Assembly: GCA_021108005.1 (NCBI GenBank)
Contig: JAIORS010000191.1
Location: 6,345-70,344 of the forward strand
DNA length: 64,000 nucleotides
Source: Candidatus Aegiribacteria sp.
GTDB lineage: Bacteria > Fermentibacterota > Fermentibacteria > Fermentibacterales > JCC-6
Direction: 5' to 3'
In this document: positions 1-55,230 of the stretch, in pieces
How positions within the stretch are numbered: the first letter of the stretch is position 1
How the letters are laid out: each line of letters starts with the position of its first letter
Notes under the pieces: model-generated
What the model was told of the DNA's origin: nothing
The model's input: the letters and a program-made list of their open reading frames with translations, nothing else
Databases searched by the model: none
Translations under genes and position numbers: made by a program

Positions 1-1
1 G

Positions 2-4061: not shown

Positions 4062-5981
4062 ATGGGAAAAATAATAGGAATAGACCTTGGAACCACGAAT
4101 TCATGCGTGGCCGTTATGGAGGGCGGTGAGCCTACCGTAATACCCAACGCTGAAGGCGCGAGAACTACACCTTCGGTAGTAGCCTTCAATGACAAGGGTG
4201 AGAGGCTTGTAGGTGTTGTAGCCTACAGGCAGGCAGTGGCGAATCCCGAGAATACGATATTCTCGATAAAGAGATTCATGGGATGCAAGTACAACGAGAT
4301 GAAAAGTGAAATTGAAAGGGTTCCCTACAAGGTTATTGAGGGGAAGAACGGCGATGCCTGGGTGGAAATCATGGGCAAGAAGTACTCACCCCCGGAAATA
4401 TCCGCGATGATACTTCAGAAAATGAGGCAGACAGCCGAGGATTACCTGGGAGAGAAAGTAGAGAAAGCGGTTGTGACCGTTCCCGCGTATTTCAACGACA
4501 GTCAGAGGCAGGCCACCAAGGATGCCGGGAAAATAGCCGGTCTTGAAGTGGAAAGAATTGTAAACGAACCCACAGCGGCAGCTCTTGCCTACGGACTTGA
4601 CAAGGAATCCTCAAACAGGACTATCGCCGTATACGACCTCGGTGGAGGAACCTTTGATATATCAATACTGGAAATTGGTGACGGGGTTTTTGAGGTTAAA
4701 TCAACCAATGGAGATACTCACCTGGGTGGGGACGATTTCGACCATGCCATCATTAACTGGATGGTTGCCGAATTCAAGAAGCAGCAGGGCATCGATCTGT
4801 CCAATGACAAAATGGCCATTCAGAGGCTCAAGGAAGCTGCTGAAACAGCCAAATGCGAGCTTTCAACAACACAGAGCACCAATATCAACCTTCCTTTCGT
4901 CACGGCGGATTCAGCCGGGGCGAAGCATCTCGACATGACACTTACAAGATCAAAACTCGAACAGCTGGTTGATGACCTTGTAGAAAGAACAGTGGCTCCC
5001 TGTAGAACGGCATTGAAGGATGCCGGTATCGAGGCGTCAGCTATAGACGATGTTCTTCTGGTCGGTGGACAGACCCGGATGCCGCTTGTTCAGAGGAAGG
5101 TTACCGAGATATTCGGCAAGGAACCTCACAAAGGAGTCAACCCGGATGAAGTGGTTGCCGTTGGAGCAGCCATCCAGGCAGGTGTACTCTCAGGTGATGT
5201 CAAAGATGTCCTTCTTCTGGATGTTACTCCGCTTACACTTGGTATCGAAACCCTCGGCGGAGTGGCGACACCCATTATAGACAAAAACACAACTATACCT
5301 ACAAAGAAAAGCCAGATATTCAGTACCGCAGCTGACAGCCAGCCCCAGGTGGAGATCATCGTGCTTCAGGGCGAAAGAAAAATGGCGGCAGACAACAGGA
5401 CTGTTGGAAGATTCGTTCTTGACGGTATTCCACCTGCCCCCAGGGGAATGCCTCAGATAGAAGTAACGTTCGATATCGATGCTAACGGAATTCTTCACGT
5501 TTCAGCAAAGGATAAGGCTACCGGGAAGGAACAGAAGATCAAGATAGAAGCCTCCAGCGGACTATCCAAAGATGAAATAGAAAGTATGATTCATGACGCT
5601 GAAGCTCATGCAGATGAGGATGCTAAAAAGAAGGATATAATAGAAAGGCGCAATCAGGCCGATGCCATGGTTTTCGAAATCGAGAAACAGATGAAGGAAT
5701 ACGGAGACAAAATATCTTCAGATGACAGATCCAGGCTTGATGCTGCAGTTTCGGAAATGAAGAAGGCACTTGAGGGGGAAGATGACGATCTGATAAAGCA
5801 GAAGTCAGAGAGTCTTCAGGAAACCTGGAAGCAGTTCGGGGAAGCCTTCTACAAGCAGCAGCAGGCTCAGGAGCAGGATGCGGGACCAGCCGGACAGGCC
5901 GGAGAAACAACCGGAACAGCTGATGCCGGTGGAGATGAAGACAACACTGTTGACGCTGATTACGAAGTTGTTGATGACTGA
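4062..5981 (+). CDS. dnaK: Chaperone DnaK (Hsp70)
   Basis: [13 protein letters not shown]...DLGGGTFD...[11 protein letters not shown], full-length with acidic C-terminal tail. Confidence 0.97.
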
Positions 5982-6637
5982 TGGCAGATCCAAGAAGGAG
6001 CCGTAGTAAAAAAAAGGAAGGTACTTCCGCAAGAGGAAAAATTCCCATTTCGGTAGTTGAGGACGAGATGGAGAAAAACCTTGAGGAAGCCGGGAATTCT
6101 AAGGCTGATGAAGAAGTTGAAAATCCGGAACTTCCAACGGATTCTAAACCTGATCCAATAAAACTGCAGCTTCAGGATAAGCTCCTGAGGCTGCAGGCGG
6201 AATTTGACAACTACAGGAAGCGTCAGGCAAGAGATTTTCGAAAACTGTGTACCCAGGGCAAGAAAGAGCTGATAAAAGAGCTTCTTGCTGTGCTGGATAA
6301 TTACCACAGGGCAGAGCAACTGGTAAAAGAGGGGGGGCACTCCGTAGAAGAGATAGCCGATGGGCTGATGAAAACATCTGAGCAGCTGGTTGGTATTCTG
6401 AAACAGGAGGGCCTTAGTGAACTGGATATAAAGAAAGGTGATCCCTTTGACCCCAATATTCAAGAAGCCATGATTGCGGAAGAAGAAGAAGGTCTGGATC
6501 AGGATACCGTTCTGGAAGTATATCAAAAAGGATACCGTTTAGGCGAGGATCTTCTCCGTCCCGCGAGAGTAAAGGTTGGAAAACCTGTTTTAAAACCCAC
6601 TGCCGGGGAGCAGGATGAAGGTGAAGAGGGAGAATAG
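5981..6637 (+). CDS. grpE: Nucleotide exchange factor GrpE
   Basis: ATG overlaps the dnaK TGA. LQAEFDNYRKR, LAVLDNYHRAEQ and C-terminal GYRLGEDLLRPARVKV motifs. Confidence 0.9.
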   Translation: MADPRRSRSKKKEGTSARGKIPISVVEDEMEKNLEEAGNSKADEEVENPELPTDSKPDPIKLQLQDKLLRLQAEFDNYRKRQARDFRKLCTQGKKELIKELLAVLDNYHRAEQLVKEGGHSVEEIADGLMKTSEQLVGILKQEGLSELDIKKGDPFDPNIQEAMIAEEEEGLDQDTVLEVYQKGYRLGEDLLRPARVKVGKPVLKPTAGEQDEGEEGE

Positions 6638-6643
6638 AAAACA

Positions 6644-7651
6644 GTGAATAAAGACCTCTACTCCATCCTGGGGGCTGACGAGAAAGCATCGCAGGAAGAA
6701 CTGAAGAAGTCTTACCGCAAGCTGGCCAAGAAGTATCATCCCGATGCGAACCCTGGAGATAAGAAAGCGGAAGAACGTTTCAAGGAAATCTCCGAAGCGT
6801 ACGATATTCTCGGCAGCAAAGAAAAAAGAGAACAGTACGATCAGATGCGGAGGGGCGGCGGAGACTTTTCGTGGGGTGAAGCCGGCGGTCAGAGAGGAAA
6901 TCCCTTTGGCGACGGCGGTTTAGCTGACATCCTTCGTTCGATGTTCGGTGGCGGTGGAGGCGGCGGAGGCGGCGGTTTCGGACAGAGGAGAGCCTCAAGA
7001 CCTACCGTTGTTGTATCTGTCCCGTTTAAAACTGCTGCCCTGGGAGGAACTGTCAGGGCTAATATGGAAGTGCCCTCCACATGTCCTGTATGCATGGGAG
7101 CAGGAGGCTCGGGAGAAGAACGCTGCAGCCAGTGCGGTGGTTCAGGCAGAATACAGCAGGGCCAGATGGTAATGCCCTGTCCGGCCTGTGGAGGTTCAGG
7201 CAGGACTTTCAAAAATAAATGTTCGAAGTGTCATGGAACCGGCGAAGTCATGTCTTCAGAAGTTGTTGACCTGAACATTCCCGCAGGATCAGATGACGGA
7301 TCAGTGCTGCGTCTCGCAACACCCTCCAGGAAGACAGTGATGGTAAAACTGAGGGTTAAGCCGGACAGTTTTTTCAGGAGAGACGGCAGGAACATTCACT
7401 GTACAGTGAAGATAAATGTTCCCCAGGCAGTTCTGGGCACGAAACTGAAAATACGTACTCTCGACGGCAAAATAGTACTTAAGATTCATCCTGGAACCCA
7501 GCCTGAAACGGTTCTGAGAATTCCAGGAAAGGGTGTTCCCTACAGAGGTACAAAGGGAGACCAGCTGGTTCATGTGGAGGTTACAGTACCAGAATCCGTA
7601 ACGGAAGAGGAAAAGGTTCTCTGGGAGAAACTTTCAGGGAAAAAAGCTTGA
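6644..7651 (+). CDS. dnaJ: Chaperone DnaJ
   Basis: GTG start. J domain with KKYHPD, Gly/Phe-rich region, four CxxCxGxG zinc-finger repeats. Confidence 0.93.
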
Positions 7652-7716
7652 CGCGGATACTCGAGCGTATTATTCCCTGTACAACGTTAATTTGAACAGA
7701 TAAGAAGGAGACTTTT

Positions 7717-7970: not shown

Positions 7971-9566
7971 ATGAAGTATTCAATTCCTCTTCTGACTGCA
8001 TTAACCACAATAGCATTAGCGGAGACCCTTCTCGTTCCCTCTCAGTACCCTTCCATTCAGAATGCCATCAACGCTGCTCAGGACGGCGATACGGTACTTG
8101 TGTCCCCCGATGAATACGAAGGACCTATTAACTTTGAGGGGAAGAACATCGTTGTATCAAGTACAGCAGGTGCCGGCAGTACTCTAATCAGAACCTCCCG
8201 TAATTACCACTGCGTGTCCATCGCAGGAGGGCAGGACAGCACAGCTGTTCTTGAAGGCTTCACAGTAAGTAACCAGGTCTCGGATAATGAAGTATCTCGC
8301 GATACTATCGGCTGTGGTGGAGGCCTTTACATCGTTAATGCATCTCCAACCATTCGGAACAATATCATTACGGACTGCGTTGCTGAAAGTCAGGGAGGGG
8401 GATTATTTCTGGAGAACTCATCCACGCTGATGTCAGGCTGTATCATCAGCAATAACACCGCGATGTTCTCCGGTGGAGTATCTGCTCTATCTTGCGGGAA
8501 GCTTGATCATCCTTTGCGCATAATCGACTGTACAATTACAGGCAATCAATCTACAGATATGGCTGGCGGACTTTCGTGTAATAGTAGTAGTTCAATAGTA
8601 ATTATCAACAATTATATCAGCGATAATTACACGTACCTTTCTGGTGGAGGTATACTGCTAAATTACACCAATGCGCTACTTTTTGGAAATACCATTTCCG
8701 GAAATGACGCATTCGATGGAGGTGGAATTTCAATAAGACATTCTGAACCGACGATAATCGGAAACATCATTGTTCGGAATACTGCTGATTACGGAGCGGG
8801 CATATACCAACTTTCAGGTCTCTTCGAACATTTAGAAAACAATACTATTGCAAACAATGCCGCGTCCGTCAGAGGTGGTGGTCTTTTATGTAAGGACGGT
8901 TCCATTTCTATTGTTAATTCCATTTTGTGGGGGAACATCGCTCCAACAGGATCTCAGATACTTATGGATAATGCTGATGTTTCGGTTGAATATTGCGATG
9001 TCGAGTACGGAGAAGATTCCGTGTATAACTTTGCAAGTTCCACACTCAACTGGGGCCCGGGCAACATCGATATCGATCCTGAGTTCGAGACGGGGCCTTT
9101 TGGTGATTATCACCTTCCATGGGGTACACCCTGTGTTGATGCGGGCAATCCCGCTTCAGAGTACAACGATCCCGAAGATCCTTTCAATCCGGGCTACGCC
9201 CTTTGGCCCGCGATGGGACTTATTCGTAACGACATGGGAGCCTTCGGAGGAGGAGGAGTAGACTACTGGCTTTCTGTGGAAGAGGAAGAATTATCACCGA
9301 CTGAAAATGGGCTTCCGTTAAAATCCTTCCCCAATCCGTTCAGTTCATCATGCACTGTGTGTTATCAGCTTGATGAAGCTTCACAAGTTGTTCTTCAGGT
9401 GTTCGATCTATCCGGTCGGCTCGTTGAGACCCTTGTAGATAAGGCTGTTCCCTCAGGCATGCACTCCGAACACTTCGATGGCTCCGGCCTCTGCCCGGGC
9501 GTGTACCTGATAAGACTGGTCGCGGTAGATGTTTCAACTTCACGGAGATGCATTGTACTTAGATAG
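7971..9566 (+). CDS. Secreted right-handed beta-helix repeat protein with T9SS C-terminal sorting domain
   Basis: N-terminal signal peptide. Repeated GGG(L/I)...N..I.gN modules of pectate-lyase-like beta-helix type. C-terminal ~80 aa (LKSFPNPFSSSCTV...VYLIRLVAVD) resemble the Por/T9SS sorting domain. Confidence 0.7.
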   Translation: MKYSIPLLTALTTIALAETLLVPSQYPSIQNAINAAQDGDTVLVSPDEYEGPINFEGKNIVVSSTAGAGSTLIRTSRNYHCVSIAGGQDSTAVLEGFTVSNQVSDNEVSRDTIGCGGGLYIVNASPTIRNNIITDCVAESQGGGLFLENSSTLMSGCIISNNTAMFSGGVSALSCGKLDHPLRIIDCTITGNQSTDMAGGLSCNSSSSIVIINNYISDNYTYLSGGGILLNYTNALLFGNTISGNDAFDGGGISIRHSEPTIIGNIIVRNTADYGAGIYQLSGLFEHLENNTIANNAASVRGGGLLCKDGSISIVNSILWGNIAPTGSQILMDNADVSVEYCDVEYGEDSVYNFASSTLNWGPGNIDIDPEFETGPFGDYHLPWGTPCVDAGNPASEYNDPEDPFNPGYALWPAMGLIRNDMGAFGGGGVDYWLSVEEEELSPTENGLPLKSFPNPFSSSCTVCYQLDEASQVVLQVFDLSGRLVETLVDKAVPSGMHSEHFDGSGLCPGVYLIRLVAVDVSTSRRCIVLR

Positions 9567-44546: not shown

Positions 44547-45004
44547 TGGGTGTAAGAAGCAGAGGCCGGAAAGCACTTCTTCAGGCCAGGTACGGAGCTG
44601 AAGTGAACAGCAGATCCCTACAGGCGAACCTGGAGGATATCAGGCAGTATCTGGCCGATCCTGACCTTGGAATGGGTGTTCCTTTTGAGATGGAGGATTG
44701 GAACTGGGTATCCGACCTTGCCAGAGCTGTTCTTGAAAACAGAACCGAAATAGACGCGAGACTCGAAGAAGTCCTTGAGAACTGGACAGTAGACAGGCTC
44801 AGTCTTGTTACACGCCTGATTCTTGAACAGGCTCTGGGGGAAATGTACTATTTCCAGCCGTTAACTCCGGTTCCCGTTGCCATTAACGAAGCTATCGAGC
44901 TGGCAAAGGCTTTCGACGAAGATGAATCCGCTGGTTTTGTGAATAGCGTTCTGGATAAAATTGCTAAAATCGGGAACTCCGAAGATCCTCCTCAGGGGAC
45001 ATAA
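44546..45004 (+). CDS. nusB: Transcription antitermination factor NusB
   Basis: RRKAREALLQALY-type N-terminus (RGRKALLQARYGAE). Downstream of ribH, as in many bacteria. Confidence 0.85.
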   Translation: MGVRSRGRKALLQARYGAEVNSRSLQANLEDIRQYLADPDLGMGVPFEMEDWNWVSDLARAVLENRTEIDARLEEVLENWTVDRLSLVTRLILEQALGEMYYFQPLTPVPVAINEAIELAKAFDEDESAGFVNSVLDKIAKIGNSEDPPQGT

Positions 45005-45007
45005 TTA

Positions 45008-45718
45008 ATGCTCATTAGAATCATTTCCGATATTCACAGTAATTACCAGGCTCTCGAAGCGGTTCTGAACGACCCGACCGGGAAAGATGCGGAAAAGACT
45101 TTATGCCTTGGCGATATCGTGGGTTACGGAGCCGATCCCTCCAGATGCATTGAGAGGGTACGGCAGGAATGCGACATCGTAGTTTCTGGTAACCATGACG
45201 CTGGAGCGGCAGGGCGGGTATCTCTCGACAGGTACAACTGGGAGGGAGCTACGGCTTTAAGATGGACAAGATCAATTCTTTCTCAGGATGAAAAGGACTG
45301 GCTGTCACTTATTCCGTACTTCGCTGAGTACGAGAATTTCTTTCTCTGTCACAGTTACCCGGCCGATCCTGAAAACTGGACGTACGTTCTCCGGCGGAAT
45401 CAAGCCCTTGAATCCATAAACGCGAGGCAGGGGTATATATCGCTTATAGGACATACACACCTTCCCGGCTGCTGGATGGAAGATGGCAACTACACCGATG
45501 CTTCGAAGGGAGATTTTTCGAAGGTCAGGCTTGTTAACGCTGGCAGTGTTGGACAGCCAAGGGACAGAGATCCAAGGGCGGCTTACCTTCTCATTGATAC
45601 CGAAGCTGGAACGTGGGAACACCGCAGGGTGAAGTACAGCATCGATGACGCCGCCGCCAGAATAAAGGAAGTTGCGCTGCCCCCCATTCTATGGGAGAGA
45701 CTTTACCGAGGACACTGA
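45008..45718 (+). CDS. Calcineurin-like metallophosphoesterase (YfcE/MJ0936-like)
   Basis: ISDIHSN, GDIVGYGADP, GNHD, GHTH motifs. Confidence 0.8.
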   Translation: MLIRIISDIHSNYQALEAVLNDPTGKDAEKTLCLGDIVGYGADPSRCIERVRQECDIVVSGNHDAGAAGRVSLDRYNWEGATALRWTRSILSQDEKDWLSLIPYFAEYENFFLCHSYPADPENWTYVLRRNQALESINARQGYISLIGHTHLPGCWMEDGNYTDASKGDFSKVRLVNAGSVGQPRDRDPRAAYLLIDTEAGTWEHRRVKYSIDDAAARIKEVALPPILWERLYRGH

Positions 45719-45719
45719 T

Positions 45720-45751
45720 GGGGTCGGACTTCACTTGCGGCACTTACGCAG
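45720..45751. repeat. GGGTC-headed intergenic repeat, copy A
   Basis: GGGGTCGGACTTCACTTGCGGCACTTACGCAG immediately after the phosphoesterase stop. Related copies at 46453, 51943 and 55283. Confidence 0.5.
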
Positions 45752-45877
45752 TTTAAGCACAGTTTATTAGACAACAGTTATTCAATACATGCACGTGGAT
45801 TCTGAAATTGACCAGGCTGAAATCCGGCAGTATCATTATTCTGGATGTAGAAAACGATATGAAGAAACAGAAGTCGT

Positions 45878-46429
45878 ATGTCGGGAGCAGGAATGAATAT
45901 TAGAAGCGCATTGTTGTCTATAGCAGTTGCTCTTTTTTCTACGAGTTTTGTTTCAGCCGATCCGGTACCGATACCTCCGGCTGAAAACAGATTCAGTATC
46001 ATGCAAACATTGGAAATGACATTTCACATGGAGAGCCCTCTTGATCAGCATTCCATGAATACCTGGATCATCTATGGAGGTCCTTCCCTGGTCTATATCT
46101 GGATCCCGGATGAAATAGTGGGTTCTGGTATCGGTTTGGAGTTAGGAGGGGAACTTCGGAAATATTTCATTGAACCTTATTCTGGTATTTTTTTTGGTGC
46201 GTATATGGGTGCCGGTATTTTATTCAGGACAGGTGAGGAACACATAGAGGCTATTTCTTCAGGTCTCAAGCTTGGATGGCGTATCCCCCTGATAAGAGCA
46301 GCGCTTCCTCTGGACCTTGAACCGTACATTGGTGTTGGTATTAAGCTGCTCAGTAACGAAAATGATGTGTGGGGCGAAAATTACTCCCATGTTACTTTAT
46401 ATCTTGGAACCAAGGTTGAACTGTACTGA
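45878..46429 (+). CDS. Small outer-membrane beta-barrel-like protein (OmpW/OmpX-like size)
   Basis: Signal peptide, alternating amphipathic beta-strand pattern, C-terminal aromatic (…GTKVELY). Confidence 0.45.
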   Translation: MSGAGMNIRSALLSIAVALFSTSFVSADPVPIPPAENRFSIMQTLEMTFHMESPLDQHSMNTWIIYGGPSLVYIWIPDEIVGSGIGLELGGELRKYFIEPYSGIFFGAYMGAGILFRTGEEHIEAISSGLKLGWRIPLIRAALPLDLEPYIGVGIKLLSNENDVWGENYSHVTLYLGTKVELY

Positions 46430-46452
46430 TCGATCAGAAGTACAGAGTCAAG

Positions 46453-46482
46453 GGGTCGGACTTCACTTGCGGCACTTGCAGA
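46453..46482. repeat. GGGTC-headed intergenic repeat, copy B
   Basis: GGGGTCGGACTTCACTTGCGGCACTTGCAG. First 26 nt identical to copy A. Contains the tandem 7-mer CACTTGC ×2. Confidence 0.5.
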
Positions 46483-46489
46483 AATAGAA

Positions 46490-47656
46490 TCAGATCTCCG
46501 TTTCGTCAGTTTTCTCAGGAAGCTTCAGTTCCGTGGAGAACCTCGCGAGCAGTTCCATTTCCGTTTTACCTTTCGCAGCGCTGGCTGAGAGCCTCGCTAT
46601 ATCCGAAAAGATATTTAGTCTTATCTCAATGGGAAGGCAAGAAGCGCTGTATATGGATTTTCGCAGTCTCGTTTCAAGATCAAGTGAATTGGAATTTCTT
46701 GCGAATTCGATTGCTTCGCTTGCCACATTGTCACCAAAAGTTTTCTGGAGTAGCACCTGCTCCTGTTGATTGAGCATGCCATCCGCCAGGAAGAGCGCGA
46801 GTGTTCCCCATAGAACAGCTTCAAATGCTGCGGCTTCGTTTATCTTTACCAGGTGAAACCCGCCGACAGCGGCAAGTTCTTTCTGGATCTTTTTTTCGAG
46901 CTTCTCCCATTCCAGGGGGGCTTTCCCCTTTTTCCCGGTAAATTTGTAGTACCGGTCACTCATCTCGAACCACAGGAGGGCTCTGACCCTTGAGGTGATT
47001 AAAGGATGCGTGGACAGAAGCTGAAACTTGGATCCTCCCATATCCAGCAATTCCCTTGCCTGGTCAAGGTAGGTGGTAAGGTCGAATCTTATATATTTGT
47101 CGCTCAATCCTGATGCCAGTTTGAGCATTCCCCTGAACGAGGATTCTGTTGATCCGCAGGATATAAAGCCTATCCTGTCCGCGCTTATTTCCCTTGCCCT
47201 TGAAAGAGCGAGCAGGTTGAAATTCTCCAACGGCGAACCGTCAGGATTCGGTGGTGGATACCGCAGGTGGCCGAAGAGGGTGTGAGATATTTCATGACCG
47301 ACGATGAATTTTATCTCGCTGGCGCTGAATCTCTCTATCAGGCCTGAGCTGAGCGCAAGGGTTACAGATCCGCCCTTGCCCTCACCGAAACTGTACGCCT
47401 GGCCCTCGCCGGAGTTAAAAACGTAACCCTCAACGGTTCTGTCGGGAATGAGTTTCTTTCTTACATCTTCGATTAATTCAGCGATCTCGGGAAAGAGCTC
47501 TGGTGCGATGAGAACAGAATGTGATAGATTCCGGCTCCTTACTTCGATCTGTTTCTCTTCTATGCCATCCTCGACTGAGCTGAAGCCATACTCATCGAGG
47601 GAATCATTTTCGAACCTGAAATCCTCGATCTGAAATGGCAGCTTAGCTTTTTTCAT
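46490..47656 (-). CDS. Soluble M48/HtpX-like HExxH metallopeptidase fused to a C-terminal TerB-like domain
   Basis: FIVGHEISHTLFGH zinc motif with no TM helices. C-terminal helical domain with TerB-like LALFLADGMLNQQEQ and ARLSASAAKG...ELLARF halves. ATG at 47656 (MKKAKLPF) chosen; it overlaps the upstream gene by 14 nt. Confidence 0.55.
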   Translation of the reverse strand: MKKAKLPFQIEDFRFENDSLDEYGFSSVEDGIEEKQIEVRSRNLSHSVLIAPELFPEIAELIEDVRKKLIPDRTVEGYVFNSGEGQAYSFGEGKGGSVTLALSSGLIERFSASEIKFIVGHEISHTLFGHLRYPPPNPDGSPLENFNLLALSRAREISADRIGFISCGSTESSFRGMLKLASGLSDKYIRFDLTTYLDQARELLDMGGSKFQLLSTHPLITSRVRALLWFEMSDRYYKFTGKKGKAPLEWEKLEKKIQKELAAVGGFHLVKINEAAAFEAVLWGTLALFLADGMLNQQEQVLLQKTFGDNVASEAIEFARNSNSLDLETRLRKSIYSASCLPIEIRLNIFSDIARLSASAAKGKTEMELLARFSTELKLPEKTDETEI

Positions 47657-48902
47657 CACTGCCTTCGAGGAGAGCCATTTCTTTGGAAATAAGTTCCTGC
47701 ATCTGCCGTGCCTGCGCCTGTTTCTCAGGGTTGGAATGTGTGGCCAGGGCGCGCCACTTCCTGTTCTCTTTTCTGAGATGCTTTCTTTTCTGTTCGACTG
47801 TCCAGGAGGGGTCAATGCCCAGTTTTGTGTTGATATTATCGGTTTCAAATATATCTATCGGAAGTATCTTCTCTATCATGGTTCTGAAGCGTTCGTGATC
47901 AACGCCCAGATTTTCGGCGAGAGAGTTAACCAGTTCAAGTTCAGTGTCCACGGCTTTTCCATCTGCGCTGGCCACCTTCAGGCAGAGTTCGAGTATGTCG
48001 TACTTGTCTCCCATGGATGAGGCCGGAATGGGATTCATCTCGATGAGGTCACTGCAGAGAGGGATGATGTCTTCGGGAACTGAGCTAGCGGAGGCCATCA
48101 TCGCCGATTCCACGGCGCTGTTAAGCTTCTGCTTAACCTCCTGCTTCTGTGATTCCACACTGCTTTCGATTCGCTTTTGTATCCATTCCTTGACAACACG
48201 GCCCTCGGTTCCCGAGAAATTCCCGTCAGCGGCGCTTACCGAGACCGCGAGCTTAACTGCCAGTTCCGCTGCTCTTAGCCTCGACTTCATATTGTCCATG
48301 TAACCAGACTGAGTATTCACAAAATATATTTCTGATTTTGACTTTACCAGTACCGTTTTATCGGGAGCAATAATTGTTACTTCGAAAAGAAGCAGTCTCT
48401 TTCCCCTTGCGGGGAAGGTCAGGGTTTCAATTGGTATGGATAACATCGGTTGCCAGACGGAGAGAAGAGACTTCATGAATGGAAGTATATCCATGGTCGA
48501 AGAGAAAAAGGCGGTAGTATCCTGGTACTGGAGGTTGTCCAGAGAACAGAGAACCGGTTTCTGATCATCCTTCCCATTGGTGATATCAAAGAGGGTTATT
48601 GTTTTCAATACCGGGCAGTTGTTCATTGGCGCGTTTATCGGTCCCTGCATCTCGATAGTGAAAACTTCCATCGTGATCTCTCCGAAATCCTTCATCTCGG
48701 TGGAGACATATGTCTGGAAAAGGAAGTTTGTCGTTGTAGGTCTTGGCCCGTTCTTAGCTTCTTTTCTCGTTTTCGTGCCCGATGATTTCTTCTCATCTTC
48801 AGAACCTGCTACCCCTGCAACTATTCCAATAACTACAATAAGCAGAACTATGCCGCAGCAGATTGGAGGTGCCAGGGAACTAAGGACAATTGTCGCTATC
48901 AA
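47643..48902 (-). CDS. DjlA-like membrane co-chaperone candidate: N-terminal TM anchor, TerB-like domain, C-terminal J-like domain with non-canonical HPD (HSNPE)
   Basis: TM helix at aa 1-32. TerB-like halves (AVSVSAADGNFSGTEGRVVKEWI and LKVASADGKAVDTELELVNSLAENLGV). C-terminal tail KRKHLRKENRKWRALATHSNPEKQAQARQMQELISKEMALL resembles the DjlA J-domain (AYRKLMSEHHPDK...KQKAQEIQQAYELI). Confidence 0.5.
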   Translation of the reverse strand: MIATIVLSSLAPPICCGIVLLIVVIGIVAGVAGSEDEKKSSGTKTRKEAKNGPRPTTTNFLFQTYVSTEMKDFGEITMEVFTIEMQGPINAPMNNCPVLKTITLFDITNGKDDQKPVLCSLDNLQYQDTTAFFSSTMDILPFMKSLLSVWQPMLSIPIETLTFPARGKRLLLFEVTIIAPDKTVLVKSKSEIYFVNTQSGYMDNMKSRLRAAELAVKLAVSVSAADGNFSGTEGRVVKEWIQKRIESSVESQKQEVKQKLNSAVESAMMASASSVPEDIIPLCSDLIEMNPIPASSMGDKYDILELCLKVASADGKAVDTELELVNSLAENLGVDHERFRTMIEKILPIDIFETDNINTKLGIDPSWTVEQKRKHLRKENRKWRALATHSNPEKQAQARQMQELISKEMALLEGSDEKS

Positions 48903-48911
48903 AACCGTCTC

Positions 48912-50474
48912 CTATTCAACCTGGAAAACCCGAAGGCTGGACCTTCTTCGTTCCACCTCGGACTGGGACATCTGTCCCGCCTGGGTATCTATGTCCATCT
49001 CCAGTTTTCTGCCCGACTCCTCGTCCTTGAATACGCAGTGCATTCTCTGGTTTGTATCGTAGCTGTATTGAACCTTGACAGGCTTGTTGGCCTCCCGGTT
49101 GGGTGGAAGATCCAGGTGACCGATGGACACGATATTCACAATATCCGGATCGGTACTTTCAATGACGTGCTGAGTAACTTTAGCTTCTATCTCTACCTGG
49201 CCCTTTGCGGCGGTGTAATAGGTTCTCTCAACCTGACATGGCAGGGTCGTATTCTTCGGAATGAGAACATCATTTATCAGGATTTTTCTCCCGGTTTCCT
49301 GATCAATGGTTGCGATTATAGTTCCATAGCAGTGTCCGCAGACTTCCTTCAGCTTGATATCCCCGAGCCCAGCGGCTACTCCGCTGGGAACTTTGGATGC
49401 GTCCTGTTCCATCAGCTTCAACCCTGCATGGAGAGCGGCTCCAAGGGCAACGCACTCGTCCGCGTTCACCGCAACCGTAGGAGGTTTGCCGAACATCTTC
49501 TCGAGTCTCTTCTGGATCACAGGTATACGGGTGCTTCCTCCCACAAGCAGCACTCTGTCAATCTGATTCGGTTCGAGTTCGGCTTCGTCGAGCACATCCT
49601 CCACAAGCATGTCTATCCTTGCAGTCAGGGGTGAGATAAGTTCCTCGAACTTCTGCCTGCTCAACTCGTGCTTAAAACTACCCTCGTTTCCAACCAGAAG
49701 TGTTTTAACAGATGGACGTTTTGAAAGTGATTTTTTTGCGTCTTCAGCCTCTATCTCGTACCTTGCCCGGTCTTCCGGAGTTGGAAACAGATCTCCATTC
49801 TTCTCACTGCTGTAAACATCTTTGAAGTTCTCGACCAGTTTCTGGTCGAACTCGTACCCACCCAGCTGATGGTCACCGGTGGAACAGACGATATCGATCT
49901 TCTTTCCCTGAACGTTCATAACTGTAACATCGAAAGTGCCACCGCCCAGATCGAACACCAGTATCTTTCCCGATACGTCCTGCTCAGACGCGTAGAATAA
50001 AGCTGCAGCCGTCGGCTCATTAACTATTCCTATTACGTTAAGACCGGCCATCTTGCCAGCGTCCATTGTGGCCTTCCGTCGAACTTCGTCGAAGTAGGCC
50101 GGAACGGTAACGACAACATCGGAGATTTCGCCCACCTGCTTCGAACATTCCTCTTTCAACTTTCGAAGGATAAGCGAAGAGAGTTCAGCGGGAGTCCACT
50201 GTTTTCCCATGACTTCCTGGGGATAGAAAGGATCCCCCATGTAACGTTTCACCCATCGGGCTGACCTTGTGACATCATCGGCCCTGGCATTAATGGCTTC
50301 ACGACCCACGAGCACGGTTTCCTGGCTGTCATCGGGAAAATAGATCGCTGAGGGTGTAATTCGCTCACCATCGGAATTGGGAACCGTCTCGGGTTTCCCT
50401 ATACTGTTAAGAATAGCCAAACCAGAAAAGGTCGTTCCCAGATCTATGCCTGCAATGTTACTCAATGTCATCAC
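48912..50474 (-). CDS. Hsp70-family ATPase paralog (520 aa), lidless substrate-binding domain
   Basis: [36 protein letters not shown] actin-like ATPase motifs, followed by a beta-sandwich SBD without the helical lid or EEVD tail. Distinct from the canonical dnaK at 4062. Confidence 0.85.
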   Translation of the reverse strand: MMTLSNIAGIDLGTTFSGLAILNSIGKPETVPNSDGERITPSAIYFPDDSQETVLVGREAINARADDVTRSARWVKRYMGDPFYPQEVMGKQWTPAELSSLILRKLKEECSKQVGEISDVVVTVPAYFDEVRRKATMDAGKMAGLNVIGIVNEPTAAALFYASEQDVSGKILVFDLGGGTFDVTVMNVQGKKIDIVCSTGDHQLGGYEFDQKLVENFKDVYSSEKNGDLFPTPEDRARYEIEAEDAKKSLSKRPSVKTLLVGNEGSFKHELSRQKFEELISPLTARIDMLVEDVLDEAELEPNQIDRVLLVGGSTRIPVIQKRLEKMFGKPPTVAVNADECVALGAALHAGLKLMEQDASKVPSGVAAGLGDIKLKEVCGHCYGTIIATIDQETGRKILINDVLIPKNTTLPCQVERTYYTAAKGQVEIEAKVTQHVIESTDPDIVNIVSIGHLDLPPNREANKPVKVQYSYDTNQRMHCVFKDEESGRKLEMDIDTQAGQMSQSEVERRRSSLRVFQVE

Positions 50475-51186
50475 TTCCTTCTGTTTGTTTCATATAGAGC
50501 CTTACTTTAGCAGGTCGAATAAGCTTCCGATGTTCGTCATCGATGTAAAAAATGTAGCCCGGGTTCACTACCTTCGATATGTGTCCGGGTTCCCCCTTTT
50601 CAGAGGGGTCTTTGCCCACTACTTCCGCTATTTTTTCCTGGCCTGAGTAAGGAGTATCGATTTCGGGTTTAAACTGTTCTATTCCGCTTCCATCAAGAGC
50701 GAATACGAGCTGGTCGTAAATCATATCGAGATCCTGACGGTGATTATCAGTTACTTCATCGGTGCTGTTCATACGTTTTTCAACATCATCGATGCATCTT
50801 ATTATTCGATGACAAAAATTCTTCAACACTGTCCAGTCGTATCCGTCCTGAAACCTCTTGACCATGCTTTGTTGTTTTGCGAAATAATCCCTCAGGCTCG
50901 ATACCTGTGAGAGCATATCCATTGCGGAGTTGTCAGACCGCTTCGCGAAATCTCCCGCCGATCTGAGGGCTGTAAGTATATCGAGATTCTGTTTCTCGAG
51001 TTCTGTCTGCAGCAGCCCGCTTACGTCAGATATCTGATCTTTCATTTCGTTAAGATGATTGCGCAGATCTTTTGAATTCTTCTTGAACATGGTTTTAAGA
51101 CTTTTTGAAAGCTCCCTGAATTGTTTTCCGGAAAGAGCAGCCTCTGCTTTCCCGGATATTTCAGCCTTCTCCGCTTTACTGGCCAT
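50458..51186 (-). CDS. GrpE-like nucleotide exchange factor paralog
   Basis: N-terminal coiled coil. C-terminal motifs align with the window's own GrpE: GIEQFKPEIDTPYSGQEKIAEV (cf. GLSELDIKKGDPFDPNIQEAMIAE) and PGYIFYIDDEHRKLIRPAKVRLY (cf. KGYRLGEDLLRPARVKVGK). Overlaps the Hsp70 paralog by 17 nt. Confidence 0.5.
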   Translation of the reverse strand: MASKAEKAEISGKAEAALSGKQFRELSKSLKTMFKKNSKDLRNHLNEMKDQISDVSGLLQTELEKQNLDILTALRSAGDFAKRSDNSAMDMLSQVSSLRDYFAKQQSMVKRFQDGYDWTVLKNFCHRIIRCIDDVEKRMNSTDEVTDNHRQDLDMIYDQLVFALDGSGIEQFKPEIDTPYSGQEKIAEVVGKDPSEKGEPGHISKVVNPGYIFYIDDEHRKLIRPAKVRLYMKQTEGSDDIE

Positions 51187-51468
51187 TTACAATCCTCCAT
51201 TGTTACCGATGAAAGTGAATCCGGAATCTGTACTATTCAATTAGAACCGGAACTGTAGAGTTATCGAGAACTATCTTCTTCTGAACCCTTACCCATCCGG
51301 TTAATACAATCAATTCAAGGTCGCATCAGGCGAATACTGATTAGTTTTATTGAAGGATGATATTCAATGGTATCAAGTTCTGTCAATTCCTGAAAATCGT
51401 AAATCGTATTTCAGTTCATTCACTTCTATCAAATATGGTAGATGAATCACTGAAAACATTTAGACCCT

Positions 51469-51954
51469 TCAGGATATGGTGTATCTTCCGCGCAGCATAT
51501 CGATTGACTTGCAGAGAAGAAGGCTCAGGCCCGTTCCCCACATGAACCCGGTTGCCGTCAGAAGAGAGCGAGAAGTATCAATCACTCCCGTGAATTCCAG
51601 TACCCACTGTAAGCCCATAATGAATGTAACGAACAGGGAAACCAGGAGAACGGTTTTCCATTTCAGTCTTTTCCGAAATAGCGGGAAGAACACAGCACAA
51701 CCGAGAACAATTGAAAAGTATATTCCGTTGCACCTCACGCATACTGCGGCAGGTCGTCCGAATATCACAGGGCATCGATCCGGTATGCCATGACACAGTA
51801 ATTTGTATGCAGATCGTATGAAACGTGCGGTTCCATCGTGAGAAAAATGCTCCAGGATTGGAGGCAGCAGACCAAGCAGCCAGATTACCAGGAAACTCAG
51901 AGCTATACATAAAGCCCATACGGGGTAACGGTTGTTTCTCGGACCGGACGTCAC
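51469..51954 (-). CDS. DUF2085-like membrane protein
   Basis: LCHGIPDRCPVIFGRPAAVCVRCNGIYFS between TM helices. Confidence 0.55.
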   Translation of the reverse strand: MTSGPRNNRYPVWALCIALSFLVIWLLGLLPPILEHFSHDGTARFIRSAYKLLCHGIPDRCPVIFGRPAAVCVRCNGIYFSIVLGCAVFFPLFRKRLKWKTVLLVSLFVTFIMGLQWVLEFTGVIDTSRSLLTATGFMWGTGLSLLLCKSIDMLRGRYTIS

Positions 51955-53054
51955 TTGCGCAGAGTGTCTTTCATTATTTCTATCATACTGTTCGCGGTAT
52001 CATCCCAGTTGAAACCGGTAGCCCATTCCATGCCGCTTTTTCCGAGTGTGTCCCTTTGAACCGGATCGTTTGCAAGCCTGTCCATTTCAGCCGCAAGACT
52101 ATCCACACTGCCATGGGGAACAAGAATGCCGGTAATGCCGTCCTTCACCGAATCCCGAAGACCATCGCTGTCGCTGGCGATAACGGGGGTTCCGCAGGCG
52201 TTTGCTTCGATTACCGTCAGTCCCCATCCCTCTTTCTCAGATGCGAATACGGCCGCCCAGGCCTTCCGCAGCCAGTGGAGCTTTCGCTCCTGGGAAACGA
52301 ATCCCTCAAAGGTAACACTCCGGTCAAGGCCAAGGCGTGAGGCGGTTTTTTTCAGCTCCGCTTCGTAATCGCCGGATCCAAGCACTACAAGCCTGTAATT
52401 CTTACCCGCGTCCCGCAGTACAGCCAGCGCCGCAAGGATCAGTTGGACACCCTTGTACTTTTTCAACCTTCCGACGTACAGGAATGTCCCCTGTTCCGGA
52501 TCGGGTTTTCCCGGCCTGTAGAATCCGGTGTCTATCCCGCAGGGAATAACGGAAATATTTTCCGCGGATATTCCCCTTTTTACGAGATCCTTCTTTGTAG
52601 ATTCGGAAATAGCCACGAAAGAGCATTCTCCATAAACCCTAGGTATGAAAGATTCCATGAAATTCACATAGAGCGCAAGAGGCAGCGCGACTTCCCTGTA
52701 AGCCGTTGTGCCGAAGAGGTGGGGCACAATGGTAAGAACAGGAACCGGAGACCATCGGGGGCTGTAGAAGGGTATCTTGCAGAGGTCTTCAATGACAAGG
52801 TCGAAGTTGGATGATATGTCGAGGGAGAGGGCAAATTTTTTCAGTGTAAAATTGAAAGTGTTCCGCTTTCCATTACGGAGGATACGTATACCGTCTATTG
52901 TTTCTTCAGAGGGGAGACCGGCCACCGCCTGAGAGATCTGTGTAACCTCATGGCCGGCAATGACTGTCCTTCTGAGGATTTCATGAAGGTGAATCTCTGC
53001 CCCCCCCGTTTCAGGATTCTTCGGATCCCTCCAGTTAAGGGCCAGAATACGCAT
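51951..53054 (-). CDS. Glycosyltransferase family 4
   Basis: EGWGLTVIEANACGTPVIASDSDGLRDSV. Confidence 0.8.
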   Translation of the reverse strand: MRILALNWRDPKNPETGGAEIHLHEILRRTVIAGHEVTQISQAVAGLPSEETIDGIRILRNGKRNTFNFTLKKFALSLDISSNFDLVIEDLCKIPFYSPRWSPVPVLTIVPHLFGTTAYREVALPLALYVNFMESFIPRVYGECSFVAISESTKKDLVKRGISAENISVIPCGIDTGFYRPGKPDPEQGTFLYVGRLKKYKGVQLILAALAVLRDAGKNYRLVVLGSGDYEAELKKTASRLGLDRSVTFEGFVSQERKLHWLRKAWAAVFASEKEGWGLTVIEANACGTPVIASDSDGLRDSVKDGITGILVPHGSVDSLAAEMDRLANDPVQRDTLGKSGMEWATGFNWDDTANSMIEIMKDTLRK

Positions 53055-53922: not shown

Positions 53923-55230
53923 TTAATTTTTAAGGTCTCTACTGCCTATCCAGTTCAGGAAGCCGTTTCTCCTGAAGTCCCAGTACCTGTTCAGTCTTCT
54001 GGGTACGGATGCTCTATCCCAGTCGGTAGGTCTGTAGACTCCCGTATCGGGAACAACGAGGGAGCCAACGTACGAACCCTGGTCGTACACCTTCTGGATC
54101 TCTTCAGCTATCTCATCGATATCATTCTGTGAGGCAATCCCGTTTGAAGTTGCCTTGTAGAACTGTACTGTCACTCTTATGGGGAATTCCGGATCCCTGC
54201 GGATTTCAAGATCATCCATCTCAGTGAAGGGCCCTTCCAATTCTCCATGACCGATCACGGCAGCTTCGACATCCGATACACCCCTGCTGAGCTCACCAGA
54301 CGCACAGAACGTTTCACAAGAAGAGTCGCAGCATACATCATCGAAATACGTGCTTTGAGGATTCCTCTGCTTCAGGGGAATCTGTATCAACAAAACCATA
54401 TTCAGGTTACTCTCCTCGGATATGTCCGAGGGGTCTCCCCCGCTGCTTACATAATCAGCCCTGAAGTCCGAAATCCGCTGCCCGGTCAGGCTGGCGCGAT
54501 TCCCGTCTTCGTTGAAGAAAAGTCTCTGACCCCAGCTCCAGGATCCCGGAACCGCGTCTCTTGCGTTATCTATTACAGTCACACTCGTGCCTTCTCTTGT
54601 TACCAGAATTGTAAGTACGGCAGGATCGCCCTCGTAGGACTGGTAATTGTAAAGTACAGGATTGAACGTTGCGTTTCCCGAATCCTTAATAGGAAGGAAC
54701 ACCGCCTGGGCGCTTACCAGAACAACGCTGTCCCGCTCCGCGAGCAAGCTGTGTTCGTCACCATCCCATGATTCCGGATCGTGGAGATAGTACCTGATAT
54801 TGTCAACGAAATCCGTAAGTGATACAGGAGCAAGATCTTCGCCTATTTCGTTGCCAACCAGCAGATAGAAATTATCCGGGTCAAGATCCGCTGAAATATC
54901 GTGAAAATTCGGATACCTTATCACTGGCATGCAGGTAAGAGAGGGGTTTTCAGAACCGTTTTGGCGGCTGTGAACCTGTATTGTCATATCGGAAATGTTT
55001 GGACCCCAGCACGAGCCGGAGTAACGCCCCGTGTCCTCCCAGGTAACGTTTACTACATCGAGACCGTGCGCGCTTGCCATTTTTCTTACGTTCTGGTCCC
55101 AGACCATCTCGGATACTCTTTGTACTACTTCCTGATAATTTTCGCCGCTTGACCTGCCCGGACAGAAGTATCCAGCGACCGAGACGGAGAGAATCATCAG
55201 TGATGTCATTGCGTTCAGAAACATTTTCAA
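53923..55230 (-). CDS. Hypothetical secreted protein
   Basis: Signal peptide; no recognisable domain. Confidence 0.4.
   Translation of the reverse strand: MKMFLNAMTSLMILSVSVAGYFCPGRSSGENYQEVVQRVSEMVWDQNVRKMASAHGLDVVNVTWEDTGRYSGSCWGPNISDMTIQVHSRQNGSENPSLTCMPVIRYPNFHDISADLDPDNFYLLVGNEIGEDLAPVSLTDFVDNIRYYLHDPESWDGDEHSLLAERDSVVLVSAQAVFLPIKDSGNATFNPVLYNYQSYEGDPAVLTILVTREGTSVTVIDNARDAVPGSWSWGQRLFFNEDGNRASLTGQRISDFRADYVSSGGDPSDISEESNLNMVLLIQIPLKQRNPQSTYFDDVCCDSSCETFCASGELSRGVSDVEAAVIGHGELEGPFTEMDDLEIRRDPEFPIRVTVQFYKATSNGIASQNDIDEIAEEIQKVYDQGSYVGSLVVPDTGVYRPTDWDRASVPRRLNRYWDFRRNGFLNWIGSRDLKN

Follow-up and report, generated by a model that had tools for sequence, protein, structure and literature searches.

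A 64,000-nucleotide stretch of DNA from the uncultured Candidatus Aegiribacteria, referred to here as the window, contains a canonical dnaK-grpE-dnaJ operon and, at positions 46490-51186, four closely packed minus-strand genes in the order GrpE-like protein, lidless Hsp70, TerB/J-like protein and M48 peptidase. The question raised by this second locus is whether its products form an Hsp70 machine of their own, and of what kind. Our preferred reading, to which we give a probability of about 0.55, is that they work as a second, dedicated Hsp70 machine on the cytoplasmic side of the inner membrane, coupled in this organism to a protease. The canonical operon, whose products matched Pfam HSP70 with 904 bits, GrpE with 126 bits, and DnaJ, DnaJ_C and DnaJ_CXXCXGXG, represents the housekeeping counterpart of the second machine. 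The features discussed below are as follows.

4062..7651, plus strand: canonical operon of dnaK (639 aa), grpE (218 aa) and dnaJ (335 aa, with HPD), from Pfam
46490..47656, minus strand: soluble M48 zinc metallopeptidase, 388 aa, from Pfam Peptidase_M48
46511..46861, minus strand: helical C-terminal domain of the peptidase, residues 266-382, tentatively TerB-like
47643..48902, minus strand: anchored TerB/J-like protein, 419 aa, from the open reading frame, an alignment of 19 relatives and an AF2 model
47658..47837, minus strand: J-like tail, residues 356-415, from AF2 helices and family-level profile matches
47865..48302, minus strand: TerB domain, residues 201-346, from Pfam TerB
48303..48740, minus strand: Ig-like beta-sandwich domain, residues 55-200, from the AF2 model
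48804..48902, minus strand: N-terminal hydrophobic anchor, residues 1-33, from sequence and alignment
48912..50471, minus strand: lidless Hsp70 paralog, 519 aa, from Pfam HSP70
50458..51186, minus strand: GrpE-like nucleotide exchange factor, 242 aa, from Pfam GrpE
51357..51386, minus strand: promoter-like site (TTGACA, 18 nt, TATCAT), matching 11 of 12 consensus positions in a consensus scan only
51469..51954, minus strand: DUF2085 membrane protein, from Pfam DUF2085

Gene layout and genomic context

A preliminary description of this locus had reported four coupled minus-strand genes, with overlaps of 17 nt and 14 nt and one 9-nt gap, and a canonical chaperone operon in the same window. All of the open reading frames and junctions were confirmed, and the canonical operon was found at the position given above. 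The GrpE-like and Hsp70 genes overlap by 17 nt if the latter begins at a GTG at 50474 (520 aa), or by 14 nt if it begins at the ATG at 50471 used by GenBank (519 aa). The Hsp70 and TerB/J-like genes are separated by the 9-nt gap, and the TerB/J-like and M48 genes overlap by 14 nt. The length of 388 residues for the peptidase is counted from an internal ATG, its longest open reading frame extending to 47848.

On inspection of the sequence, a strong Shine-Dalgarno GGAGG lies 8 nt ahead of the ATG of the GrpE-like gene at 51186, and the promoter-like site is about 170 nt 5' of that start. The site falls within the 282-nt spacer that separates the GrpE-like gene from its immediate upstream neighbor, the co-oriented DUF2085 gene. 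DUF2085 occupies the upstream position in loci L002-L006 and L015 and is missing from L001, L016 and L010; its presence there is conserved only in Aegiribacteria-like loci. In the window the operon lies among housekeeping genes (riboflavin synthesis, nusB, a glycosyltransferase), in DNA of even GC content.

The GrpE-like protein and the lidless Hsp70

The GrpE signature that had been read in the 242-aa protein is borne out by its profile score, 49.5 bits against Pfam GrpE (PF01025), with a gathering cut-off of 25.8. Residues 91-229 align with profile positions 30-162 of 165, and this C-terminal GrpE domain carries the motifs QDGYDW...IRCIDD and PGY...RPAKV behind a coiled-coil-like N-terminal region. 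No similarity at the BLAST level was found between this protein and the window's own GrpE, and the NCBIfam GrpE equivalog models gave only 13-25 bits, far under their cut-offs, which places it in the GrpE family without making it an orthologue of housekeeping GrpE. Its relatives are usually 430-680 aa long, and in 65 of 70 loci they carry a TM-like segment at the N terminus; unlike most of them, the protein in the window has no membrane segment. The protein would be expected to act as an exchange factor, speeding ADP release from the Hsp70 encoded beside it.

An Hsp70 paralog of 520 residues, lidless and with an intact ATPase domain, had also been proposed, and this description holds. The protein scored 346 bits against Pfam HSP70 (PF00012), above the gathering score. 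Alignment to the window's DnaK, with which it shares 32% identity, revealed a complete nucleotide-binding domain and an end about 20 residues past SBD-beta, with the alpha-helical lid missing. The catalytic residues D8, K70, E171, D194 and T199 (DnaK numbering here and below) are invariant among 121 family members. Other regions have diverged. Compared with the window's DnaK, the interdomain linker is about 13 residues longer and more polar, and the hydrophobic VLLL of DnaK is replaced by IKLK in the window and by I[NK]L[TK] in the family. All TerB-linked Hsp70s examined have G or A in place of R167 and H or Y in place of Q378, and most have S in place of D477. In DnaK, R167 and Q378 are bonded by D35 of the J-domain HPD motif (Mayer 2021, PMC8215388).

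Among known Hsp70s, the paralog most invites comparison with HscC. The HscC subfamily is defined by the loss of DnaK residues 76-101 and by 4-8 extra residues in loop L1,2 (Mayer 2021, PMC8215388), and the paralog has a 21-residue deletion at the same site and an 11-residue insertion in L1,2 of SBD-beta. Both are specialized, non-essential-type Hsp70s with a reduced lid, and the membrane-anchored partners of each have moved away from HPD in their J motif, which reads HPE in the HscC partners DjlB and DjlC. Assignment of the paralog to HscC was nevertheless rejected. It is only 32% identical to E. coli HscC, and the TerB-linked Hsp70s formed a clade separate from DnaK, HscA and HscC with a bootstrap value of 1.0 in a tree that contained a single HscC sequence. 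HscC proteins are 550-580 aa long, whereas the TerB-linked Hsp70s are 512-542 aa and have lost almost the whole lid. R167 and Q378, absent from the TerB-linked proteins, are retained by HscC as they are by DnaK and HscA. HscC is thought not to need an exchange factor (PMC8215388), while a GrpE-like gene lies beside the TerB-linked Hsp70 in 53 of 53 loci, and the latter has TerB proteins as partners, not proteins of the DjlB/DjlC type.

The anchored TerB/J-like protein

The 419-aa protein begins with a hydrophobic anchor holding a conserved P-x-CCG motif and followed by a Lys/Arg-rich linker. The AF2 model (mean pLDDT 79) has low pLDDT in the anchor region, with a helix at residues 18-31. By the positive-inside rule, that is, from the distribution of charge only, the remainder of the protein should be cytoplasmic. 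Next comes a highly conserved Ig-like sandwich made of beta strands throughout (pLDDT 81 for residues 51-60 and 84-96 for residues 61-200), whose only matches were generic Ig-like sandwiches; it is a candidate module for binding a client or a partner. The TerB domain that follows scored 37.5 bits against Pfam TerB (PF05099), with a cut-off of 24.4, has the TerB fold and contains two invariant ADG...E motifs (D226/E233 and D314/E321). An exhaustive profile search recovered 950 representative relatives at E<=1e-3 and 326 at E<=1e-30, mostly full-length proteins of 380-410 aa.

The order of modules, with an anchor, TerB and a C-terminal J-type region, is that of DjlA, an anchored TerB-like co-chaperone of DnaK whose J domain is required for activity (PMC11709261). 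DjlA differs in lacking the additional 145-residue Ig-like sandwich between anchor and TerB, in having HPD where the 419-aa protein has HSN in a tail under the Pfam DnaJ threshold, and in using the housekeeping DnaK and GrpE, whereas the 419-aa protein is encoded with an Hsp70 and an exchange factor of its own. As a candidate DjlA the protein was rejected (17 bits against NCBIfam PRK09430, cut-off 162; HPD absent; extra beta-sandwich).

The tail consists of LGI, a basic helix (KRKHLRKENRKW), a loop and a second long helix, with modeled helices at residues 357-360, 369-386 and 392-415. In the loop, H389-S390-N391 (nt 47730-47738) stands where J domains read HPD, which puts Asn at the site of the essential Asp. 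In DnaJ the corresponding change, D35N, is inactivating. The preliminary description had named this a membrane-anchored protein with TerB and J-like domains; the TerB assignment and the HSN reading stood, but the window's own tail was unmatched by Pfam DnaJ (PF00226) even at E<=10. Similarity to J domains emerged at the level of the family. Of 10 family tails, 5 had Pfam DnaJ as their top match and a sixth had it among its matches, in register, with E from 2.3e-5 to 0.16 and 12.5-24.8 bits, under the gathering score of 27.8. An hhalign comparison of the family tails with six real J domains gave E=4.9e-4 at a probability of 32% and aligned HxD to HPD. A profile search of PDB sequences found no J domain. 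Among about 160 relatives the tripeptide is mostly x-x-D, with HSD in 30, HPD in 19, SSD in 15, HKD in 10 and HSN in 5. As judged from sequence, the tail appears J-like as a family trait, with homology that is sub-threshold everywhere.

One explanation of the departure from HPD, in line with the tethering role suggested in the preliminary description, is a pseudo-J tail. Such a tail would tether or restrain the Hsp70 while leaving its ATPase unstimulated, in the manner of Pam16/Tim16 of the mitochondrial import motor, and the Hsp70 would act as a holdase or be triggered by client alone. The tripeptide in the window is HSN, its closest relatives have HSN or HSD, and loci identified through the GrpE-like gene mostly have S/N-x-D without His; the partner Hsp70 has a polar linker and lacks R167 and Q378. 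In Hsp110, a diverged linker accompanies loss of J stimulation (2026 review, PMC13580251), a parallel that also favors a pseudo-J tail. The invariant catalytic residues and the strictly retained exchange factor point the other way, since both would be pointless without a turning ATPase cycle. The relatives conserve the Asp and the basic helix II, HPD itself survives in some of them, and DjlC, which bears HPE, functions with HscC according to Kluck 2002 as cited in PMC8215388. The Asp is mostly kept, and R167 and Q378 are replaced in the partner Hsp70; a J interface that has been remodeled is no less likely than one that is dead. We regard a purely tethering tail as possible but unlikely.

The M48 peptidase

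The product of the last gene scored 62.5 bits against Pfam Peptidase_M48 (PF01435; cut-off 20.3) and has the M48 fold. Its HEISH motif is at residues 121-125 (nt 47282-47296), with a third ligand, E156, in the motif RAREISADR, and HExxH and the Glu ligand are invariant among 35 peptidases. The sequence contains neither a membrane segment nor a signal peptide. A soluble M48-TerB fusion had been proposed, of which the M48 half is well founded; the C-terminal domain was unmatched by Pfam TerB. That domain is tentatively TerB-like, with one ADG...EQ motif kept (D292, E299, Q300) and a second degenerate. Among known M48 peptidases, HtpX and Oma1 take part in the quality control of membrane proteins. 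The operon's peptidase shares the M48 fold and HExxH plus downstream Glu with HtpX, Ste24, BepA and Oma1, and differs from them in being soluble, in its C-terminal helical, possibly TerB-like domain and in being encoded within an Hsp70 operon.

Conservation of the gene neighborhood

Linkage was examined in 80 metagenomic loci retrieved through the GrpE-like protein alone, with only loci that had enough downstream DNA entering the downstream counts. The Hsp70 paralog is the next gene in all 53 countable loci and the TerB/J-like gene follows in 40/40, but the M48 peptidase follows in only 2 of 33, so that it is not integral to the core mechanism. Conservation of the four-gene neighborhood, raised as a check by the preliminary description, was thus found for three genes and not generally for the fourth. 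The conserved unit is GrpE-like, Hsp70 and TerB/J-like, and the peptidase is a recurrent accessory. None of the outcomes that the preliminary description had named as refuting it was observed.

All of the Aegiribacteria-like loci retain the four-gene order including the peptidase. Five distant relatives of the peptidase were looked up; four are within Hsp70 and TerB clusters of differing layout (L013, L014, L096 and L097), and the fifth adjoins a small TerB gene. The triad was found also in Planctomycetota genomes. Its diverged representatives number in the hundreds in the protein library, and more than 300 loci were confirmed in metagenomes from sediment and elsewhere; we found no description of the triad in the searchable literature.

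A proposed membrane-associated Hsp70 machine

The reading of the locus as a second machine draws on the gene content, the domain identities, the intact catalytic residues, the strict co-occurrence of three genes and the recurrent association with a peptidase. The 419-aa protein, which combines the DjlA plan with an Ig-like sandwich, would localize the machine and probably select its clients, themselves probably membrane proteins. Its J-like tail may dock onto the specialized lidless Hsp70, whose J-contact surface and interdomain linker would have been remodeled in step with the tail, and the HPD-less tail would presumably stimulate its ATPase. The GrpE-like protein, itself membrane-anchored in most other lineages, would reset the Hsp70 through nucleotide exchange. 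In Aegiribacteria and several other lineages the soluble zinc peptidase is an addition, to which polypeptide held or unfolded by the Hsp70 would be handed for cleavage, and its helical domain may recruit it to the anchor.

Like DnaK-GrpE-DnaJ, the system is a co-encoded Hsp70 ATPase, GrpE-family exchange factor and J-type targeting factor, but all three parts are strongly diverged and the whole is membrane-tethered, lidless and sometimes accompanied by a peptidase. The mitochondrial import motor (mtHsp70, Mge1, Pam18, Pam16 and Tim44) likewise has a membrane-held Hsp70, anchored J and HPD-less J-like proteins, and recycling by a GrpE homologue. This likeness is functional only; the homology it implies is that of shared families, and a translocon or import function is not evidenced here.

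The same components could instead serve signaling or regulated proteolysis rather than bulk quality control. TerB would sense a membrane or metal cue, the Hsp70 would remodel a specific regulator much as DjlA and DnaK loosen IgaA-RcsD in E. coli, and the peptidase would then cleave at a specific site, in the manner of BlaR1-type sensor proteases. We found no conserved regulator gene beside the system across lineages and no sigma/anti-sigma pair adjoining the operon in the window, and the peptidase is missing from most loci, which leaves this explanation doubtful.

A role against phage or in genetic conflict, with the Hsp70 and protease sensing or destroying a phage protein or triggering abortive infection, seems very improbable. 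TerB modules do belong to stress and phage-resistance systems, TerB having been linked to phage defence in work cited in PMC11709261, and among the peptidase-containing clusters L014 adjoins DarT/NADAR and Sel1-repeat genes and L097 an integrase. A search of PADLOC-DB 2.0 gave no significant match for any of the four proteins. The Hsp70, TerB and M48 proteins were unmatched, and the GrpE-like protein had only weak matches of a coiled-coil type, to ZorA (E 0.0041) and LeoA (E 0.017). Viral contigs, phage genomes and plasmids yielded no relatives, and the housekeeping neighbors, the even GC content and the stable DUF2085 synteny across Aegiribacteria also argue against this role. A redundant back-up heat-shock chaperone with the general job of DnaK, which the pairing of an Hsp70 with a GrpE-family partner might suggest, is hardly tenable for a lidless protein of a separate clade (bootstrap 1.0) that has an altered substrate cleft and linker, remodeled J contacts, dedicated anchored co-chaperones and a GrpE-like partner without BLAST-level similarity to canonical GrpE.

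The module bears on several wider matters. Current reviews recognize three prokaryotic Hsp70 types, the specialized ones being said to do without an exchange factor (PMC8215388), and refer to other DnaK derivatives as unexplored "dark matter" (PMC13580251). The module departs from that picture in being compact and strictly conserved as three genes and in pairing a specialized Hsp70 with a dedicated exchange factor. We suggest tentatively that the TerB-linked Hsp70s could be a fourth prokaryotic class, with an obligatory, usually anchored GrpE-like factor and an HPD-independent, J-derived anchor, forming with M48 an unfoldase-protease for membrane proteins; if so, this would be a chaperone-protease based on Hsp70 and not on an AAA+ ring. 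The J-type partner has drifted from HPD and the HPD-reading residues of the Hsp70 have changed alongside, so the family offers a natural experiment on rewiring of the J-Hsp70 interface. The module is also a concrete entry to the function of TerB domains, including that of DjlA. The recurrent M48 peptidase suggests a direct coupling of Hsp70 to a protease, which is not known in bacteria. The system as such and the J-like tail have so far gone unnoticed; all four proteins already carry individual names in GenBank, where the GrpE-like protein (MCD4776785.1) is listed as "nucleotide exchange factor GrpE".

Organization and Setting of the Operon

The four proteins exceed the curated Pfam thresholds for GrpE, HSP70, TerB, and Peptidase_M48, respectively, as the assignments in the preliminary description led one to expect. 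Their genes fill a single minus-strand interval, and a canonical chaperone operon in the same window makes theirs a second system, as had been stated. The relevant features are as follows.

4,062-7,651, canonical dnaK-grpE-dnaJ operon
46,490-51,186, minus strand, the four-gene operon
51,386-51,357, minus strand, near-consensus sigma-70-like site from a sequence scan, inside the 282-nt spacer upstream of the operon
51,469-51,954, minus strand, DUF2085 membrane protein, directly 5' of the operon

The tight coupling claimed for the genes is real. The GrpE-like and Hsp70 genes overlap by 14 nt if the Hsp70 start is ATG 50471 (the GenBank call) or by 17 nt if it is GTG 50474, a gap of 9 nt separates the Hsp70 and TerB genes, and the TerB and M48 genes overlap by 14 nt. 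The first ATG of the operon is preceded by a GGAGG Shine-Dalgarno sequence, and the region is uniform in GC content. In a terminator scan, sites were no more numerous than in shuffled sequence, and neither a search for CIRCE elements nor Rfam over 45,000-53,000 returned anything relevant.

The neighboring genes are of the housekeeping kind (ribBA, ribH, nusB, and genes for a metallophosphoesterase, a GT4 glycosyltransferase, and a methyltransferase). Two flanking ORFs, at 53,923-55,230 (minus strand, 435 aa) and 45,878-46,429 (plus strand, 183 aa), matched nothing in Pfam at E ≤ 0.001; the 183-aa product has a signal-like segment at its N-terminus. The DUF2085 gene occupies the same upstream position in six Aegiribacteria-like loci (L002-L006 and L015) and is absent in the more distant loci L001, L016, and L010. 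Its presence could reflect synteny within the lineage, or its product could be a fifth partner specific to that lineage.

The Hsp70 Paralog

Over the nucleotide-binding domain and SBD-beta, the Hsp70 paralog can be aligned with DnaK. It ends about 20 residues past SBD-beta and consequently has no lid, it is missing the segment equivalent to DnaK residues 76-101, and it has about 13 additional residues before the linker and an insertion of about 11 residues in loop L1,2. HscC has this 76-101 deletion and an L1,2 insertion in common with the paralog. Five catalytic residues are all invariant in 121 family members, so that the ATPase should be active, and the original reading of a lidless Hsp70 with an intact ATPase domain stands. 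Lidless DnaK derivatives are known and have been called unexplored (PMC13580251).

Relatives of the paralog number in the thousands (512-542 aa), many of them named from Planctomycetota. Its identity to E. coli HscC is 32%, the same figure as to the DnaK of its own genome. All ten TerB-linked Hsp70s in a small neighbor-joining tree formed one clade (bootstrap 1.0) apart from DnaK, HscA, and HscC; a sister relationship to HscC is possible, because the tree included only one HscC sequence. Myxococcus SglK/GrpS was considered and rejected, since SglK is of the DnaK type and full length and can complement a dnaK mutant of E. coli.

The contacts made by the HPD motif of J domains on DnaK are H33 with the backbone of L391, P34 with P419, and D35 with R167 and Q378 (PMC8215388). 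The TerB-linked Hsp70s retain P419 and a hydrophobic residue at 391. The R167 position holds Gly or Ala in every one of the 121 close TerB-linked Hsp70s and Gly, Ala, His, or Tyr in the wider set, and the Q378 position is His or Tyr in every one examined; both R167 and Q378 are retained in DnaK, HscA, and HscC alike. The D477 position is mostly Ser, and where the DnaK linker reads VLLL these proteins have I[NK]L[TK].

The GrpE-like Exchange Factor

BLAST shows no similarity between the GrpE-like protein and the window's own GrpE, and the GrpE-like protein does not reach the NCBIfam equivalog cut-offs. It is a diverged member of the GrpE family and not a duplicate. Its counterparts in metagenomic loci are mostly long (median 461 aa), and 65 of 70 have an N-terminal TM-like segment; the 242-aa form in the window is a short variant without an anchor.

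The 419-aa Anchor and Its J-like Tail

The 419-aa protein begins with a hydrophobic anchor and a Lys/Arg-rich linker. Residues 55-200 form an all-beta domain, residues 201-346 are the helical TerB domain, and residues 356-415 make up a tail of three helices. The all-beta domain is confidently modelled and matches only generic Ig-like sandwiches, including in a Foldseek search of the PDB. Nearly all close relatives have a conserved P-x-CCG motif within the anchor, at residues ~14-21 (window region 48,840-48,860).

The tail had been described as J-like, with HPD replaced. The J relationship is supported at the level of the family but not by the window's own tail, which has no Pfam DnaJ match. 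Pfam DnaJ was the top match for five of ten relatives' tails and was listed for a sixth, below threshold (E from 2.3e-5 to 0.16) and in the correct register. When a profile of 146 tails was aligned by hhalign with six genuine J domains (those of DnaJ, DjlA, HscB, DjlB, and DjlC from E. coli and of the window's DnaJ), the E-value was 4.9e-4; LGI fell on LGV, and H-x-D fell on HPD. The J domains of DnaJ and DjlA scored at least as high as all but one or two of 500 shuffles of themselves. A search of PDB sequences with the whole-protein profile returned no J domain; its hits were limited to helical proteins made by design and a weak match to TerB. We conclude that the tail probably derives from a J domain and is no longer a canonical one.

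At the HPD position, the window does read HSN (H389-S390-N391), as do five of about 160 family members, the window included; HPD occurs in 19 and HSD in 30, and the great majority have the Asp. S/N-x-D predominates in the loci nearest the Planctomycetota type. Helix II of the tail remains strongly basic. The changes in the tail correlate with the changes at the J-contact residues of Hsp70. In the E. coli hscC/djlB/djlC locus (L095; djlB and djlC at 3,416-4,843 and 6,213-7,664), the N-terminal J domains of DjlB and DjlC, the partners of HscC, read HPE and not HPD; a specialized Hsp70 with a non-HPD J protein therefore has precedent.

The M48 Peptidase

The fourth protein had been called a soluble HExxH peptidase fused to a TerB-like domain. 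The first part is secure: besides the Pfam match, H121, E122, H125, and E156 are invariant in 35 relatives, and there is no membrane segment. The second part is weaker. The C-terminal domain matches the TerB domain of the 419-aa family by hhalign with E = 1.9e-4 and a probability of 48%, and Pfam TerB matches, even weak ones, occur in only 4 of 35 close relatives; more distant relatives have both Pfam M48 and TerB. A TerB-like C-terminal domain is thus plausible but not established. The Sabulitectum peptidase is without this domain.

The N-terminus of the peptidase has an R-[YF]-x-x-D motif (residues 14-18; window region 47,600-47,620), in which R14 and D18 are invariant in 35 relatives. The segment is modelled with high confidence and could be a pro-peptide-like or partner-binding element.

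Conservation of the Gene Cluster

The set of proteins closely related to the 419-aa protein is narrow (18 clusters, 42-95% identity), and a genome-collection scan with the narrow family alignment found only three loci. The four-gene order described at the outset is intact in every close-relative locus examined. The architecture of the 419-aa protein is far more widespread: an exhaustive profile search recovered 326 representatives at E ≤ 1e-30 and, at the looser limit of E ≤ 1e-3, 950, most of them 380-410 aa long with matches from end to end. Two Planctomycetota genomes have genes for a GrpE-domain protein, Hsp70, and a TerB protein in that order, and no peptidase.

As a measure of linkage independent of the Hsp70 and TerB genes, metagenomic loci were retrieved by the GrpE-like alignment alone (313 confirmed relatives, 80 kept), and their ORFs were scored with our own HMMs. 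Among loci with sufficient downstream DNA, the GrpE-like gene was followed by the Hsp70 paralog in 53 of 53 and by the TerB/J-like gene in 40 of 40, whereas the M48 peptidase followed in only 2 of 33. Four of five more distant peptidase relatives lie inside Hsp70 and TerB clusters, with differing layouts; the fifth adjoins a small TerB gene and no Hsp70. The core is therefore a three-gene module; the peptidase is an accessory that recurs and has become attached to it in several forms.

Gene order in clusters containing distant peptidase relatives
L013: Hsp70, TerB/J-like, PEGA protein, TerB/J-like, Hsp70, M48
L014: TM-GrpE-like, Hsp70, short TerB/J-like protein, M48
L096 (Pseudomonadota MAG): Hsp70, TerB, M48
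L097: GrpE, Hsp70, M48, Hsp70, TerB

Doubling to two Hsp70 paralogs and two TerB/J-like genes in some clusters (L013, L097) indicates that the module has been duplicated and elaborated; the intervening PEGA-domain protein of L013 is 769 aa long.

An ECF-type sigma factor gene (Pfam Sigma70_r2/r4) lies directly 5' of the GrpE-like gene in the related locus L024 (3,841-5,066, plus strand) and in 14-17 other metagenomic loci. The gene after it encodes a protein of 213 aa that has a CxxC motif and a hydrophobic stretch and may be an anti-sigma factor. Such an arrangement is suggestive of regulation in response to envelope stress. Another gene that recurs upstream of the GrpE-like gene, in L022 (2,285-4,195, plus strand) and about 35 metagenomic loci, encodes a type II/IV secretion ATPase (T2SSE and MshEN domains) and is probably a case of lineage synteny within Planctomycetota-like contigs.

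Proposed Function

As an Hsp70/exchange-factor/J-type machine whose anchor resembles DjlA, the module belongs to a known kind. GenBank names all four proteins individually. The arrangement had been thought undescribed, and we found no description of an Hsp70/GrpE-like/TerB/M48 cluster in full-text searches of the literature, although an earlier mention is possible. What is new is an Hsp70 clade of its own, an obligatory and usually anchored GrpE-like partner, a tail without HPD that is matched by altered contact residues in Hsp70, and the coupling to a peptidase.

The analysis shows which domains are present, that the active sites are intact, that three of the genes are strictly linked, that the peptidase recurs, and that the 419-aa anchor and, for most lineages, the exchange factor have membrane segments. 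The mechanism given next is a proposal. By the positive-inside rule, and given the need to meet a cytosolic Hsp70, most of the anchor would be cytoplasmic. The tail would dock on Hsp70 through the remodelled interface and govern its ATPase, with the GrpE-like protein resetting the chaperone. The Ig-like and TerB domains may select a membrane-proximal client or cue, and the peptidase, where present, would cut what Hsp70 holds. Strict retention of the exchange factor argues that the ATPase cycle turns over and that the tail is not a purely passive tether. The window's own tail has Asn at the Asp position, so that a passive tether may still apply in this organism.

A signalling role, in which remodelling is coupled to site-specific cleavage of a regulator, has DjlA as a precedent and would suit the ECF sigma and possible anti-sigma genes directly upstream at 14-17 metagenomic loci; we regard it as a rather doubtful alternative to the client-directed machine proposed here. 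An anti-phage or defence system is improbable and has little support: one related locus (L014) lies beside DarT/NADAR, but PADLOC gave no significant match, the viral contigs, phage genomes, and plasmids searched held no relevant relatives, and the gene context is housekeeping. A redundant heat-shock role is very unlikely for so remodelled an architecture.

The Hsp70/TerB/M48 cluster of L014 adjoins genes for Sel1-repeat proteins as well as the DarT/NADAR genes (1-3,967 and 8,443-9,063). Sel1-repeat genes, ybeQ and ybeT, are also found at the E. coli hscC locus.
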